DNA of 4,301 bases from a virus (taxonomy: Duplodnaviria; Heunggongvirae; Uroviricota; Caudoviricetes): IMG/VR virus record IMGVR_UViG_3300000293_000103; one strand, 5' to 3'. The notes below the pieces were generated by a model that saw only the letters and a program-made list of their open reading frames with translations, made no database searches and had not been told where the DNA came from. The position numbers and the translations under genes were made by a program. Each line of letters opens with the position of its first letter. The first letter of the stretch is position 1. Shown here one piece after another: positions 1 to 4,139 of the stretch.

Positions 1-68
1 TCAAAACAACCTTCAGACGTATTAACGTTTGGTAATAACGTTTTCATTATCGCGCCCTCAACAATGAG

Positions 69-208: not shown

Positions 209-350
209 TTCACTTTAAAAAGGGCGGCAGAGCAGTCACGGAGTAAAACTGATACCGCCAAATGTCACCAGAAAATTGATAACAGAGGGCGTTGCAGCGG
301 GGTTGTCACTTAAGCGTATGGTCAACCTGACAACCCGGTGTCCTCAACGG

Positions 351-446: not shown

Positions 447-703
447 ATAACCCCGCCATACTTACCGCCGCGCCATTTCGCGGATTGCCACAACCGGAAG
501 CGCACGGTCGACGAAAATTTAACGACAGGCTATCTATGAACCAGCTACCTCGCCGTGCGCTTTCGCGTTATGGTCTGACTTTTCAGGGAAATATCCTTTC
601 AGTAAACTGTCAGTGCCGGATGCTCACCCGTGTCCGGCGCACGCACTCCACCTCACCCGTGGAGAACTCCTTAATTACCAACCTTAGCTTCGTTGGTTAG
701 CTA

Positions 704-922
704 TTAACGCGGGTATGTAATCATTCTGGCAATGCTTAATGCCGCTGCTTTTTCCAGCCTGGTGATATCCTGCTCCAGAGCGGACAGATTTTCAGCCTGC
801 TTAGCCCTGGCTTCATTGGCCCATTTCAGATCCTGCGCTGCATTAATTTTCTGGCGCATCCACTCATAAAGTTCATCATCGGTATAGTCTGGCGCGATGA
901 TGACGGGTTCTCGTTTCTGCAT
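704..922 (-). CDS. Hypothetical small phage protein (72 aa), last gene of the leftward early operon
   Basis: ATG at 922-920 preceded by GAGGAA with a 5-nt spacer; TAA stop at 706-704. Predicted helical, charged protein (MQKREPVIIAPDYTDDELYEWMRQK...). No family recognised. Confidence 0.6.
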   Translation of the reverse strand: MQKREPVIIAPDYTDDELYEWMRQKINAAQDLKWANEARAKQAENLSALEQDITRLEKAAALSIARMITYPR

Positions 923-951
923 ACTGATTCCTCGCGGTGCTGCTTCGCTTA

Positions 952-1080
952 TCAGCCGTTAGATTTTGCCGAGCTGGAAAGCGCCTGTTTAAACTCACTG
1001 AAGCTGAGAGCTTCTTCGCCTTCGGCAAGGCCTTCGAAGTATTCTTCGTAAGCCTTTTCCATGATTGTGTCGAAATCCAT
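952..1080 (-). CDS. Small acidic protein (42 aa, MDFDTIMEKAYEEYFEGLAEGEEALSFSEFKQALSSSAKSNG), absent from the ORF track
   Basis: Translated by hand. ATG at 1080-1078 lies 1 nt after the upstream gene's stop (1084-1082), with AGGTGA just upstream; TGA at 954-952. It fills the gap between the two flanking leftward genes exactly. Too short to be certain. Confidence 0.45.
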   Translation of the reverse strand: MDFDTIMEKAYEEYFEGLAEGEEALSFSEFKQALSSSAKSNG

Positions 1081-1081
1081 A

Positions 1082-1237
1082 TCACTCACCTGAGTTTCTT
1101 TCCAGCCAGCGACGGGCACCATTTTCGGTTTTAAACGTTTTGCTTTTGGTATACGTCATCACGGTGAACGTACCGTCCTGGTTGGGGAACACGCCACATA
1201 CCAGAGATTCGCTGTTGCCAAGATCGATAGTATCCAT
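1082..1237 (-). CDS. Small phage protein (51 aa from the internal ATG; 78 aa if started at 1318), resembling the small YdaF/YdaG-type proteins found next to Rac-type repressors
   Basis: ATG at 1237-1235 is preceded by GAGG with a 5-nt spacer, giving MDTIDLGNSESLVCGVFPNQDGTFTVMTYTKSKTFKTENGARRWLERNSGE. First gene downstream of the leftward promoter. The family resemblance is from memory and the 5' end is ambiguous. Confidence 0.55.
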   Translation of the reverse strand: MDTIDLGNSESLVCGVFPNQDGTFTVMTYTKSKTFKTENGARRWLERNSGE

Positions 1238-1418
1238 GCTGACCTCATTTCCCCTTAACGCCGGGGTAGCGGAACAAAAACCTGCTGCATAGTTATTAAA
1301 GTTGAACCCTGCCGTCATGTTCTTACGCCTCGGGCTGGCTACTTAACCCCTGACCACTGCCTGGTAACTCGAAGTATTGCCCTGCATTCTGTGGGGCGGG
1401 GTGGGTTGGTATGCTGTT

Positions 1419-1447
1419 AAGGTAACAAGAGTTACCTTTCGAGTCAA
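1419..1447 (-). promoter_or_regulatory. Leftward early promoter (PL-like): -35 TTGACT (1447-1442), 17-bp spacer, -10 TACCTT (1424-1419), with embedded operator
   Basis: Hexamers read on the minus strand. The geometry mirrors the rightward promoter at 2220-2249, with the same palindrome in the spacer. The -10 is weak (TAnnnT only). Confidence 0.4.
1421..1436. promoter_or_regulatory. Operator OL: palindrome GGTAAC-AAGA-GTTACC
   Basis: Perfect 6-bp arms with 4-bp spacer; same GTAAC-N4-GTTAC core as the two sites at 2185-2198 and 2233-2246. A lone GGTAAC half-site is at 1363-1368. Confidence 0.55.
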
Positions 1448-1479
1448 TACGATGTTGCAAAAGGTACATTTGAGAGCGT

Positions 1480-1505
1480 GAAAAACCCGCAATGAATGCG
1501 GGTTC
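1480..1505 (-). terminator. Rho-independent terminator of the repressor gene
   Basis: On the minus-strand RNA: 8-bp stem AACCCGCA/UGCGGGUU with loop UUCAU, followed by a U tract (UUUUUC in total); begins 5 nt after the repressor stop (1512-1510). Not terminator-like on the plus strand. Confidence 0.6.
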
Positions 1506-1509
1506 TGAC

Positions 1510-2184
1510 TCAGTCTAAGTATTGATGTATTTGTGAAACTTTACCTTTAATGGTGTAACCACCATTCAGTTCGATGGGTTTGTAAAGCGGATTCAGTGAC
1601 AACAGATAGATGTTTGGTCCGTCAATCGCAACTTTTTTTAGTGTTACGTTTGGCGTTCCTTCCAATTGGATTAAGATTATTTTTCCCACCAGTTCTCTAA
1701 TGTTACTTGAGCATGGTGTGATCAGCACGGTAGATCCATCGGGGATGGTTGGGAGGCCGTTAGAGTTTGTCATCGCATCTCCCTCAACATGCAATAAAAA
1801 AGAGTTTTCAGCGGTTTTTGTCATGACATCAACCCAATTCTTAATGCCAGGAATCTCGGTTACTGGACAACTCATATCCCAATAACCAGCCTGTTCCCAC
1901 GTTAAAACGGGCAACCGGGCGATGTTGTCACTAATGTAAAGATACTGATTCAGACGCAGATCATCGGTTTTATCGTGACCGTCCTTTCCATAAAGAATCC
2001 ATTCAGGAGATTTGGAAAGCAATTTTGACAGTAGATGCAAATTCTCACCGTCAGGTTTTGAAGAGCCATTTTCCCATTTTGTTACGGATACACGAGATAT
2101 GCCGATTGCTTTCGCAACCTGCTGTTGGGTTAATCCAACGTCTTTTCGACGATTCCGAATACGTTCGCTGATAGTGTTTTTCAT
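1510..2184 (-). CDS. Prophage CI/C2-type repressor: N-terminal XRE-family HTH plus C-terminal LexA-like S24 peptidase domain, with Ala at the catalytic Ser position
   Basis: N-terminus MKNTISERIRNRRKDVGLTQQQVAKAIGISRVSVTKWENG matches the P22 C2 / DicA HTH pattern. Linker has an Ala-Gly (EQAGYW) at the expected cleavage position. C-terminus has HVEGDAM...TLKKV, i.e. the S24 motif with Ala for Ser. Start placed at ATG 2184-2182 by alignment to P22 C2; the ORF-track TTG start at 2283 would run across the operators and the cro start. Confidence 0.88.
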   Translation of the reverse strand: MKNTISERIRNRRKDVGLTQQQVAKAIGISRVSVTKWENGSSKPDGENLHLLSKLLSKSPEWILYGKDGHDKTDDLRLNQYLYISDNIARLPVLTWEQAGYWDMSCPVTEIPGIKNWVDVMTKTAENSFLLHVEGDAMTNSNGLPTIPDGSTVLITPCSSNIRELVGKIILIQLEGTPNVTLKKVAIDGPNIYLLSLNPLYKPIELNGGYTIKGKVSQIHQYLD

Positions 2185-2198
2185 GTAACCAATGTTAC
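2185..2198. promoter_or_regulatory. Operator OR-a: GTAAC-CAAT-GTTAC, directly abutting the repressor start codon
   Basis: Palindrome with 5-bp arms and 4-bp spacer, same core as the other two sites. It lies where the repressor-maintenance promoter would be autoregulated. Confidence 0.5.
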
Positions 2199-2219
2199 TA
2201 CCAAGTGATGTTGCTATGG

Positions 2220-2249
2220 TTGACATTGCTATGTAACTATTGTTACCCT
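2220..2249 (+). promoter_or_regulatory. Rightward early promoter (PR-like): -35 TTGACA (2220-2225), 18-bp spacer, -10 TACCCT (2244-2249), with operator OR-b GTAAC-TATT-GTTAC (2233-2246) in the spacer
   Basis: Consensus -35; weak -10; operator overlaps the spacer and -10, the classic repressible arrangement. OR-b differs from the OL core at one central base. Confidence 0.45.
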
Positions 2250-2275
2250 CCTGCTCGAAATAACAGGAGAGTTTT

Positions 2276-2491
2276 ATGTTCAAAGATGATGTTCTGCGCT
2301 ATTTCAAAAAAAAGCGACTAGTAGCTGAGGCTCTTGGAATTTCACATGTGGCTGTTGTGCGGTGGAAAGCAGTTATTCCCAAACTTCGCGCAATGGAACT
2401 GGATGAAATTACTAACGGTGAATTGAAATACAACCCAGAACTTTACAAGAAGCAGGATAGCACCTCGAACGAAGGAAAGAATGATTCATGA
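2276..2491 (+). CDS. Cro-like small HTH regulator (DicC / YdaS-like)
   Basis: AGGAGA 5 nt upstream of the ATG; 71 aa, MFKDDVLRYFKKKRLVAEALGISHVAVVRWKAVIPKLRAMELDEITNGELKYNPELY. Divergent from the repressor. The pattern matches my recollection of Qin DicC (LYFGSKTKLAQAAGI...SWKG...GRAMRLQE..GGELQYDPKVY). Confidence 0.85.
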   Translation: MFKDDVLRYFKKKRLVAEALGISHVAVVRWKAVIPKLRAMELDEITNGELKYNPELYKKQDSTSNEGKNDS

Positions 2492-2913
2492 AAATCAAGC
2501 ATGAACACATCCGCATGGCGATGAATGCCTGGGCGCATCCGGACGGCGAAAAAGTACCGGCTGCGAAAATTACCAAAGCGTATTTCGAGCTGGGAATGAC
2601 GTTCCCGGAACTGTATGACGACAGCCATCCGGAAGCCCTGGCTCGCAATACCCAGAAAATTTTCCGCTGGGTAGAGAAAGACACCCCTGATGCAGTTGAA
2701 AAAATTCAGGCGTTGTTACCAGCGATCGAAAAGGCAATGCCACCTTTGCTGGTGGCCAGAATGCGCAGCCACAGTTCAGCTTATTTTCGGGAGCTGGTGG
2801 AGACGCGGGAGCGACTGGTGAGAGACGCTGATGATTTTGTCGCAGTGGCAATCGCCGGTTTCAATCAGATGAACCGTGGTGGCCCGGCAGGAAATGCTGT
2901 GGCAGTACATTGA
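2488..2913 (+). CDS. ydaT: YdaT-like protein (functional CII analogue / reported toxin in Rac and CP-933P-type prophages)
   Basis: Its ATG (2488) overlaps the cro-like TGA (2489-2491) as ATGA. 141 aa beginning MKIKHEHI, which I recall as the YdaT N-terminus; position matches the racR-ydaS-ydaT-ydaU order. Not searchable here. Confidence 0.7.
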   Translation: MKIKHEHIRMAMNAWAHPDGEKVPAAKITKAYFELGMTFPELYDDSHPEALARNTQKIFRWVEKDTPDAVEKIQALLPAIEKAMPPLLVARMRSHSSAYFRELVETRERLVRDADDFVAVAIAGFNQMNRGGPAGNAVAVH

Positions 2914-2984
2914 CTGACAATAGCCATATCGAATCGCTTCCGGCAACTCGTGAGTAAAAAGATTCGGTATCAGAAGAGGTGAGT

Positions 2985-4139
2985 ATGGCTAACGCCTGGC
3001 TCAGATTATGGCATGACATGCCAAATGACCCTAAGTGGCGAACAATTGCCAGGGTGTCAGGGCAGCCAATTGCAACAGTGATGGCAGTGTATATCCACCT
3101 CCTGGTGAGCGCGTCACGAAATGTCACGCGAGGTCACATTGATGTCACGACAGAAGATTTGGCAAGTGCGCTCGACGTGACAGAAGAGGTAATTGATTCA
3201 ATTTTGCAGACGATGCAGGGGCGGGTACTTGATGGTGATTTAATCACTGGATGGGAAAAACGCCAGGTGCTGAAAGAGGACAACGGCAATATTTCGCAAA
3301 CCGCAAAGTCTCCGGCAGAGCGCAAGAGGGCGCAGCGAGAGAGGGAAAGAAAGCGGGAACAAAATGGCGATTGTCACGGCGAGTCACGAAATGTCACGCA
3401 CATGTCACGACGAGTCACGACAGATAAAGATACAGATAAAGATACAGATCAAGAAGATCAAAACACTATGGTCCATGGCGTAAAAAACGCCACGAACCAG
3501 GCAGGGGATGTTCAGACCGTCACTCCTGGCCAGCCCGCAGGCACGACACCGGAAGCCGATTCAGCGTATGCGCTGAAAGCCGATTCGGGCGCTGTGCAGC
3601 AGGTGATGACCGCAAGGCAGGAGCAATCACACCAACTTCAGCAGCCTGAAGCCGATTCCGCCATTCAGCGGGAANNNNNNNNNNNNNNNNNNNNNNNNNN
3701 NNNNNNNNNNNNNNNNNNNNNNNNNNNNNNNNNNNNNNNNNNNNNNNNNNNNNNNNNNNNNNNNNNNNNNNNNNNNNNNNNCACCGGGCAGCCTATGGGA
3801 CGAGTGGATTATCCTGATGTGTTCGAACAGGTCTGGCGGGAATACCCGTTGCGTGCCGGGGCAAACCCGAAGAAATCCGCTTTCAGTGCCTGGAAAGCCA
3901 GATTACGCGAGGGGGTGCCACCAGAGGCCATGCTGGATGGCGTGAGGCGTTACGCAAGATACCTTGCGGCTACCGGGAAAACGGGAACGGAATTTGTTCA
4001 GCGAGCGACGACGTTTTTTGGACCGGACCGGAATTTTGAAAACCCCTGGCTGCTCCCGGTAAGCGGCACGAACAACCAGCGTTGTGTGAATCATATTTCT
4101 GAACCGGATACCGAAATTCCACCGGGCTTCAGGGGGTAA
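2985..4139 (+). CDS. Phage replication initiator-like protein (lambda O / Rac YdaU-type), with iterons and a low-complexity linker inside the gene
   Basis: ATG 2985 preceded by GAGGTG with a 5-nt spacer (the track's GTG 2979 is 2 codons upstream); TAA at 4137-4139. Structured N-terminal domain, charged KR/DE-rich linker coinciding with the DNA repeats, conserved-looking C-terminal domain (YPDVFEQVWREYP...FSAWKARL...RYARYL...FFGPDRNFENPW). The frame is assumed continuous across the N gap at 3675-3781. Confidence 0.7.
   Translation: MANAWLRLWHDMPNDPKWRTIARVSGQPIATVMAVYIHLLVSASRNVTRGHIDVTTEDLASALDVTEEVIDSILQTMQGRVLDGDLITGWEKRQVLKEDNGNISQTAKSPAERKRAQRERERKREQNGDCHGESRNVTHMSRRVTTDKDTDKDTDQEDQNTMVHGVKNATNQAGDVQTVTPGQPAGTTPEADSAYALKADSGAVQQVMTARQEQSHQLQQPEADSAIQREXXXXXXXXXXXXXXXXXXXXXXXXXXXXXXXXXXXXTGQPMGRVDYPDVFEQVWREYPLRAGANPKKSAFSAWKARLREGVPPEAMLDGVRRYARYLAATGKTGTEFVQRATTFFGPDRNFENPWLLPVSGTNNQRCVNHISEPDTEIPPGFRG
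3113..3149 (+). repeat. Iteron cluster A: four direct GTCAC(G/A) repeats at 3113, 3123, 3133, 3144 (10/10/11-bp phasing), plus an inverted GTGAC at 3177-3181
   Basis: Read directly; the 17-mer GTCACGAAATGTCACGC is identical to one in cluster B (3383-3399). Confidence 0.65.
3373..3419 (+). repeat. Iteron cluster B: five direct GTCACG repeats at 3373, 3383, 3393, 3404, 3414 (10/10/11/10-bp phasing); candidate origin core
   Basis: Read directly; helical-turn phasing is typical of initiator binding sites (lambda ori lies inside O). Immediately followed by the AT-rich repeat. Confidence 0.7.
3421..3464 (+). repeat. AT-rich tandem repeat (CAGATAAAGATA x2, then degenerate CAGATCAAGAAGATCAAAAC) with two GATC sites; candidate DNA-unwinding element
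   Basis: About 70% A+T, A-skewed on the plus strand, adjacent to iteron cluster B; GATC at 3447-3450 and 3456-3459. Encodes the DKDTDKDTDQEDQ linker peptide. Confidence 0.6.
3675..3781. other. Run of 107 N (gap or masked) inside the replication gene
   Basis: Literal N characters; 107 is not a multiple of 3, so reading-frame continuity of the flanking ORF is an assumption. Confidence 0.95.

Follow-up and report, generated by a model that had tools for sequence, protein, structure and literature searches.

An Escherichia coli prophage repressor with alanine in place of the S24 nucleophile serine: a probable natural non-inducible CI-type repressor

How is a lambdoid prophage switched on when its CI-type repressor carries Ala in place of the Ser that serves as nucleophile in S24 self-cleavage? 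The question is raised by a 4,301-nucleotide stretch of tailed-phage DNA (IMG/VR record IMGVR_UViG_3300000293_000103; the whole stretch is here called the window), which comes from a lambdoid E. coli prophage of Qin/Rac-like type and constitutes its immunity region. The repressor gene has the helix-turn-helix domain, the divergent cro and the palindromes on both sides that define a lambdoid CI-type immunity repressor. The reading favoured here is that the protein is probably a natural, selectively maintained, non-inducible master repressor of the CI/C2 type, whose S24 domain would be a pseudo-protease kept only for oligomerisation; judged from its sequence, DNA damage probably cannot switch on these prophages in the usual way. 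The gene and the residues concerned are the following.

1510-2226, minus strand: CI/C2-type prophage repressor gene (open reading frame list, Pfam, RefSeq annotation in 100%-identical genomes)
1771-1782, minus strand: GDAM motif, the equivalent of G-[DEN]-S-M at the S24 nucleophile (translation, phmmer, alignments)
1774-1776, minus strand: Ala codon GCG, residue 151 in the 238-residue numbering, equivalent to lambda CI Ser149 (translation, phmmer)
1636-1638, minus strand: retained general-base Lys, K197, equivalent to lambda CI Lys192 and the first Lys of TLKKV (phmmer, alignments)
1885-1890, minus strand: retained Ala-Gly (EQAGYW), equivalent to the lambda CI Ala111-Gly112 cleavage site (phmmer, alignments)

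The nucleophile position and its history

The repressor, named "LexA family protein" in RefSeq (WP_001394126.1, 238 residues, in 100%-identical genomes), consists of an N-terminal HTH_3 domain (Pfam, 60.2 bits) and, at residues 92-216, a Peptidase_S24 domain (PF00717) that scores 61.2 bits against a cut-off of 23.3 and spans positions 1-115 of the 116 in the profile. At full length it matches lambda repressor 3bdn_A in a phmmer search of PDB sequences (E=9.8e-14), and the same structure is the top Foldseek match of its AlphaFold2 model (E=3.8e-11), in which the helix-turn-helix and the beta-rich C-terminal domain are well predicted (mean predicted local distance difference test score, pLDDT, 79) and which matches structures of lambda CI, LexA and P22 C2. 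The C-terminal domain has the S24 fold, with a target-normalised template modelling (TM) score of 0.83 and a root-mean-square deviation of 1.7 against lambda CI 1kca_A; the N-terminal domain reaches a target-normalised TM score of 0.95 against P22 C2.

Within this domain the phmmer alignment pairs the query "hvEGDAMTn" with lambda CI "evEGNSMTa" (Ser149), "vtlKKv" with "ftfKKl" (Lys192) and "eQAGyw" with "vQAGmf" (Ala111-Gly112), so that by its sequence the scissile bond, which in this family is Ala-Gly, Cys-Gly or Leu-Gly, appears to be present, and K197, 46 residues past Ala151, falls within the ~37-46 residues downstream at which an S24 general base is expected. In MAFFT alignments of 78-96 homologues the column occupied by Ala151 is Ser in 91 of 96 sequences and that of K197 is Lys in 95 of 96; in alignment A1 all 41 other Ser-bearing rows have their Ser in the nucleophile column. 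The motif offers no alternative Ser, reading GDAMTN here as against GDSMTN in the sister alleles. An Ala in a column that is near-universally Ser marks a deviation at the most conserved position of the domain and not an accident of alignment. A preliminary description of this DNA had placed GDAM at 1771-1782, the Ala codon at 1776-1774 and the Ala-Gly at 1890-1885; recomputed from the sequence, these positions are correct, the alignment to S24 members that it called for sets the Ala opposite lambda CI Ser149, and the Lys and Ala-Gly are kept as it claimed. The repressor unable to autocleave that it predicted is the natural expectation from a Ser-to-Ala change in which both of these are retained.

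The Ala allele is clearly more than the private variant of a single strain. Of 5426 complete E. coli genomes, 702 carry the gene (~13%, about one in eight, counts that reflect database sampling), with a per-genome median of 1 place and maximum of 2, and the carriers include sequence type 131 (ST131), O111:H8/H- enterohaemorrhagic E. coli (EHEC), enterotoxigenic (ETEC) and avian pathogenic (APEC) strains, and animal and environmental isolates. A 61-nucleotide query centred on the Ala codon finds an exact match in 681 of the 683 complete E. coli genomes that carry the segment, the two imperfect ones differing outside the Ala codon; the TCG version of the query finds an exact match in none of the 683. 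Over window positions 447-3674 the identity with E. coli DETEC-P169 is 100%, and the immunity module is at least 98.3% identical across diverse lineages and several prophage backbones.

The close family, at 63% identity or more, is small, and the evolutionary inference rests on seven coding sequences. The main E. coli Ala allele (cluster P0001, 499 members, plus a fragment cluster of 187) is accompanied by an 89% identical E. coli Ala allele with codon GCG (P0002) and a 70% identical Salmonella Ala allele with codon GCA (P0005), and the Lys and Ala-Gly are kept in all Ala alleles. Ser alleles are P0003 and STEC434, with codon TCA in 8 complete genomes, and P0006, with codon TCG. In bootstrapped neighbour-joining trees (200 replicates, nucleophile column removed) the E. 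coli alleles, Ala and Ser, group together in 200/200 bootstraps and the Ala alleles are monophyletic in 0/200, which implies at least two changes at the codon, either two independent losses or one loss that was later reversed.

The two E. coli Ala alleles have diverged by a synonymous distance (dS) of 0.55 overall and 0.73 in the C-terminal domain, where the ratio of non-synonymous to synonymous divergence (dN/dS) is 0.054; among five recent alleles the segregating sites of that domain are 5 synonymous and 1 non-synonymous. When the 67 columns that are at least 90% conserved in 41 Ser-bearing homologues are compared, position 151 is the sole one with a non-conservative change in all four Ala rows; position 169 (V to I) differs in all four too, conservatively. 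The C-terminal domain is under strong purifying selection, and with its low dN/dS and intact conserved columns it is not decaying: it is a conserved fold minus one atom. The Ala is an old, conserved change, neither an error nor a recent mutation.

Loss of the nucleophile also recurs more widely. An exhaustive HMMER search of 1.84 billion representatives gave, from its best 150 matches, an alignment of 101 full-length sequences (the query and 50%-identity representatives) in which the nucleophile column holds 84 Ser and 17 non-Ser residues (6 Ala including the query, 5 Thr, 6 other); loss thus appears recurrent in HTH-S24 repressors. The GDAM motif is unmistakable in two of the 17, the distant alignments being less certain and the other Ala or Thr representatives being unnamed metagenomic singletons that are uninformative. 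A scan of genome contigs gave relatives at no more than 53% identity and, one of its two patterns having demanded Ser, is uninformative on the frequency of Ala. Among the S24-type CI clades I-VII of inducible Shiga toxin (Stx) phages, Ser is kept in all (PMC8951638).

Two side observations belong to the same family. In homologues from insect symbionts, namely P0010, P0027 (Arsenophonus) and others, either the Ala-Gly site is gone (EQISKW) or the motif is missing as a whole (PVPDDKTDN). In one E. coli genome the allele P0009 is a natural truncation of the repressor to a 132-residue helix-turn-helix protein, 87% identical over the N-terminal 58%; being about the size of DicA, it may be a snapshot of a path from a full-length CI to a short DicA-type repressor.

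Predicted consequences for induction

The operator-like palindromes, which match GTAAC-N4-GTTAC, lie as follows, strand not applicable.

2185-2198: GTAACCAATGTTAC, on the PR/PRM side, within the annotated first 14 codons of the repressor gene
2233-2246: GTAACTATTGTTAC, between repressor and cro, adjoining a conserved -35-like GGTTGACA
1422-1435: GTAACAAGAGTTAC, 3' of the repressor gene and upstream of ydfA, where PL/dicBp would be placed by analogy with Qin dicBp (PMC10448788)

These are the three exact copies in the window. At up to 2 mismatches there are 6, where 1.22 are expected and 0 of 200 shuffles reach 6, and the palindrome positions are kept in every allele examined, Ala and Ser, down to 66% protein identity. 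They are probably the operators of the repressor, and their conservation in place in Ala and Ser alleles points to a single immunity specificity for inducible and non-inducible forms.

In the mechanism proposed, repressor dimers would bind these operators on either side of the gene and so silence the rightward (cro, ydaT, replication) and leftward (ydfABC, dicF, dicB) operons, the C-terminal domain serving for dimerisation and cooperativity like that of lambda CI. The engineered mutants LexA S119A and lambda CI S149A do not cleave themselves. With the Ser hydroxyl missing, autocleavage of the Ala repressor, whether stimulated by RecA or at alkaline pH, is likewise predicted to be absent, and SOS could then not directly derepress the prophage or the toxic dicB and dicF genes. 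The switch would flip only stochastically, on a signal other than SOS, or by the action of a trans-acting factor; none encoded by the prophage itself was found. Deletion of dicA leaves dicBp fully on (PMC10448788), and DicB and DicF are reported to be toxic on overexpression; that toxicity implies selection for the repressor itself. The Ala state is probably favoured through the survival of lysogens with a locked prophage after DNA damage, a plausible route of selection for Ala. Carriage of a prophage makes the host sensitive to ciprofloxacin, and a Gifsy-2 lysogen that is non-inducible is freed of that sensitivity (PMC13320796). Because Ser and Ala alleles have their operators in common, the immunity conferred by an Ala prophage against inducible relatives should moreover be proof against SOS.

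Several points weigh against this account. Non-cleavage is argued from engineered mutants of relatives. The retained Ala-Gly and Lys and the near-identity of the module in many backbones could mean that the phages are still mobile and have some route of induction. The search for an antirepressor covered the prophage loci, and small antirepressors are poorly conserved and easily missed in sequence searches. Two recent origins of Ala would equally be expected to leave the C-terminal domain under purifying selection, although the shared GCG codon and a dS of 0.55-0.73 argue against them. Oversampled clones, ST131 for one, inflate the 13% prevalence. The 50,697 phage records include no repressor with more than 60% identity to the query, although ~13% of E. 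coli genomes carry the gene; this speaks for a locked prophage, but weakly, since the rare Ser alleles are missing from those records too.

The strongest alternative accepts a non-cleavable repressor and supposes that SOS induction is nevertheless achieved indirectly by an antirepressor, perhaps under LexA control, on the same or another resident prophage. The Gifsy antirepressors GfoA and GftA can work in trans from one prophage on another (PMC3121763), dicBp under DicA control is derepressed 165-fold by Rem (PMC10448788), and Tum of phage 186 has been named as a further precedent. The N-terminal domain of the repressor is 54% identical to DicA residues 7-76, and the near-identity of the module across lineages and backbones suggests ongoing mobility. 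Against this, the known antirepressor-controlled repressors of the Gifsy/DicA/RacR group are without an S24 domain, and the check for an antirepressor gene elsewhere in the prophage, proposed in the preliminary description, came back empty: none is annotated across the ~70 kb spanning the prophage that matches the window, 8 unannotated small prophage open reading frames match no antirepressor family in PHROGs, and tblastn finds no match to Rem in six prophage loci. A 90-residue open reading frame between hokD and DUF968 (L002:26176-26448), in the position of rem in K-12 Qin, was considered and shows no BLASTP similarity to Rem.

With a position weight matrix built from 21 known LexA boxes, which themselves score 12-27 bits (median 20), no site reaches 14 bits in the window-matching prophage. 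The candidate CTGCTCGAAATAACAG at 2251-2266, between repressor and cro, fits CTGT-N8-ACAG with 1 mismatch and was rejected at 6.2 bits; LexA-pattern matches in the window are not above chance, being equalled in 30 of 200 shuffles. Related prophages, one of ST131 at ompW (L017:28888-28907) and one at L012:368-387, do have a single very strong LexA-box-like site of 23.7 bits, TACTGTAAAAATATCCAGTT, which is absent from the prophage matching the window. What this site overlaps is no small open reading frame but the start codon region of a prophage DNA methyltransferase gene, which follows shortly after the Q antiterminator and may be an SOS-regulated moron. Taken together, induction through an antirepressor is rather unlikely.

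UmuD, LexA and lambda CI are known to be capable of intermolecular cleavage. The Ala repressor might accordingly be cut in trans by a Ser-bearing S24 partner such as the repressor of a homoimmune superinfecting phage, and the Ala-Gly and Lys kept in all Ala alleles, together with the existence of Ser-type sister alleles having the same operators, would suit this. Ser alleles, however, occur in 8 of 5426 genomes as against ~694 with Ala, and since a genome has a median of 1 place and never more than 2, a Ser-bearing partner is normally absent; retention of the residues is also explained by structural roles and the very low domain-wide dN. Cleavage in trans is therefore highly improbable.

The sequencing error or recent inactivating mutation that the preliminary description had allowed for, GCG being one base from TCG, can be dismissed with near certainty, as an assembly error or a strain-private mutation can, in view of the 61-nucleotide GCG and TCG searches and the Ala in alleles 89% and 70% identical. 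Equally negligible is a misalignment by one residue, a domain other than S24 or a nucleophile elsewhere: no supporting point was found, and the ungapped HMMER pairing around the motif, the end-to-end Pfam profile, the concordant multiple alignments and Foldseek rule it out.

For the locked repressor a further and more tentative suggestion may be made, namely that the CI nucleophile codon is an evolutionary toggle in enterobacterial lambdoid prophages, in which a Ser-to-Ala change would turn an SOS-inducible phage into a locked element of benefit to its host and, with Lys, Ala-Gly and the fold preserved, a single base change could restore inducibility. This is possible rather than probable. Were it true, Ala would be under positive maintenance in roughly one E. 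coli genome in eight, ST131 and the effector-carrying prophages of EHEC among the carriers, pseudo-protease CI proteins would form a recurrent and previously unrecognised class, and prophages predicted from sequence to be "intact" would be SOS-blind.

Relation to known repressors

The repressor resembles lambda CI and P22 C2 (MEROPS S24) in its two-domain architecture, a gene divergent from cro, the linker Ala-Gly, the catalytic Lys and the fold; its N-terminal domain is ~41% identical to that of P22 C2, and its overall identity to lambda CI is only ~24-30%. It differs from both in that Ser is replaced by Ala, with self-cleavage predicted to be absent. The substitution is the one borne by the laboratory cleavage-dead mutants lambda CI S149A and LexA S119A (PDB 1jhh, 1jhc), and structures of such mutants are among the Foldseek matches of the model. 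Other non-inducible mutants set beside it are lambda CI K192A, lambda ind-, LexA3 and 933W cI ind-; an uninducible 933W CI blocks Stx production (PMC8951638). Unlike these engineered or selected mutants, which are laboratory constructs or single mutants, the Ala repressor is a natural, fixed and widespread allele under purifying selection.

In genomic role it is the counterpart of DicA of Qin, RacR of Rac and GfoR, GtgR and GftR of the Gifsy prophages, a repressor upstream of ydfABC-dicF-dicB with Cro and YdaT-type partners, and by analogy it would share with them the outcome of no RecA-mediated cleavage. The Gifsy, DicA and RacR repressors, however, are ~135-150 residues long, without an S24 domain or Ala-Gly (PMC3121763, PMC10448788), whereas the repressor here has 224-238 residues with a complete S24 domain and Ala-Gly and so is not a short protein of that kind; moreover, no cognate antirepressor of the Rem or GfoA type was found in its prophage loci. 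The comparison with Gifsy-type prophages drawn in the preliminary description thus stands as to the expected lack of RecA cleavage in both, and is otherwise loose because the Gifsy repressors lack the S24 domain altogether, the complete fold being kept here. The Ala repressor suggests a stage intermediate between CI proteins that cleave themselves and the short repressors of DicA, RacR and Gifsy type.

Natural losses of catalytic residues are represented by Synechocystis LexA and by the MEROPS S24 "non-peptidase homologues". These differ from the present case as host regulators of other phyla, not master repressors of lambdoid prophages. Natural non-cleaving regulators of the LexA family are reported to be still functional in DNA binding (PMC7567884); they occur for example in cyanobacteria, Synechocystis LexA among them. 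No publication on this allele, or on a natural Ser-to-Ala CI in lambdoid prophages, was found in the incomplete literature that was searched.

The inducibility of a prophage decides between host killing under DNA-damaging antibiotics, the spread of virulence genes, and domestication. A single-residue signature readable from sequence would mark this immunity type as probably SOS-blind in ST131, O111 EHEC, ETEC and APEC strains, and such a nucleophile signature would refine calls of prophage "intactness". Ala and Ser sister alleles with the same operators also constitute a natural experiment on what a lysogen pays and gains by being inducible.

The immunity region and the prophages that carry it

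The neighbouring features of the window are as follows.

2276-2491, plus strand: Cro analogue of the P22_Cro family, divergent from the repressor (Pfam PF14549, 59.4 bits)
2488-2913, plus strand: YdaT-family protein, a CII analogue (Pfam YdaT_toxin, 39.6 bits)
2979-4139, plus strand: replication initiator or replisome organiser gene (open reading frame list; RefSeq "phage replisome organizer")
1082-1318, minus strand: ydfA-like DUF1391 gene, first of the leftward operon (Pfam DUF1391, 90.3 bits; a shorter RefSeq call covers 1082-1237)
704-922, minus strand: ydfC (RefSeq annotation of identical sequence)
222-273, minus strand: DicF small RNA (Rfam RF00039, 77 bits against a gathering threshold of 48, full length 1-52)
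1-47, minus strand: 5' end of dicB, beginning MKTLLPNVNTSEGCFE and leaving the window on the left (read from the sequence)

The YdaT-family protein falls in PHROG 163, "CII-like transcriptional activator" (E=1.9e-45), and YdaS and YdaT of CP-933P are Cro and CII analogues (PMC8630535). The annotation of an identical genome places ydfB between the ydfA-like gene and ydfC, and dicB is annotated beside ydfC in matching genomes; the gene order of the dicBF locus is that of K-12 Qin, so that the locus is of the Qin type. With DicF and dicB downstream in a leftward operon under repressor control, a non-cleavable repressor would also gate dicBF expression.

The repressor probably starts at ATG 2184 rather than at the RefSeq ATG 2226, which would make it 14 codons shorter (224 residues). 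Annotated codons 1-3 are the reverse complement of a conserved -35-like element, GGTTGACAT, codons 10-14 (NIGYM) coincide with the palindrome at 2185-2198, residues 1-15 have pLDDT values below 50, and the position of M15 is the start of most homologues in the wider family. A start at ATG 2184 would leave an operator region of 91 bp. The scan for promoters and terminators returned no consensus promoter in 1300-2320; a conserved TTGACA is seen by eye at 2219-2224. Immediately after the repressor stop, at ~1480-1508 on the minus strand, a GC-rich stem-loop, AACCCGCA-TTCAT-TGCGGGTT, is followed by a T-run; it is unlisted by the consensus scan and is probably an intrinsic terminator between the repressor gene and the PL-side operator.

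At least four integration sites or backbones harbour the module, namely ttcA (which is the Rac site), potB-potC, ompW and yccA. The DETEC-P169 prophage, located between potC and potB, possesses genes for head, tail and lysis, with IS100 in its exonuclease gene. In E. coli O111:H- 110512 (L019) an Ala-type module is found in a heavily degraded prophage at yccA/tRNA-Ser, which has a frameshifted integrase, two copies of IS1203 and the type III effector genes tccP2 and espV; with these effector genes beside the module, the repressor in EHEC sits in an effector-carrying element.

Runs of N occupy 351-446 and 3675-3781 of the window, the latter within a repetitive, acidic, Gln-rich stretch of the replication gene, and across them the offsets relative to the 100%-identical genome shift by ~88 and ~84 nucleotides; the runs may be masks whose length is arbitrary, the alternative being a source that differs at these places.

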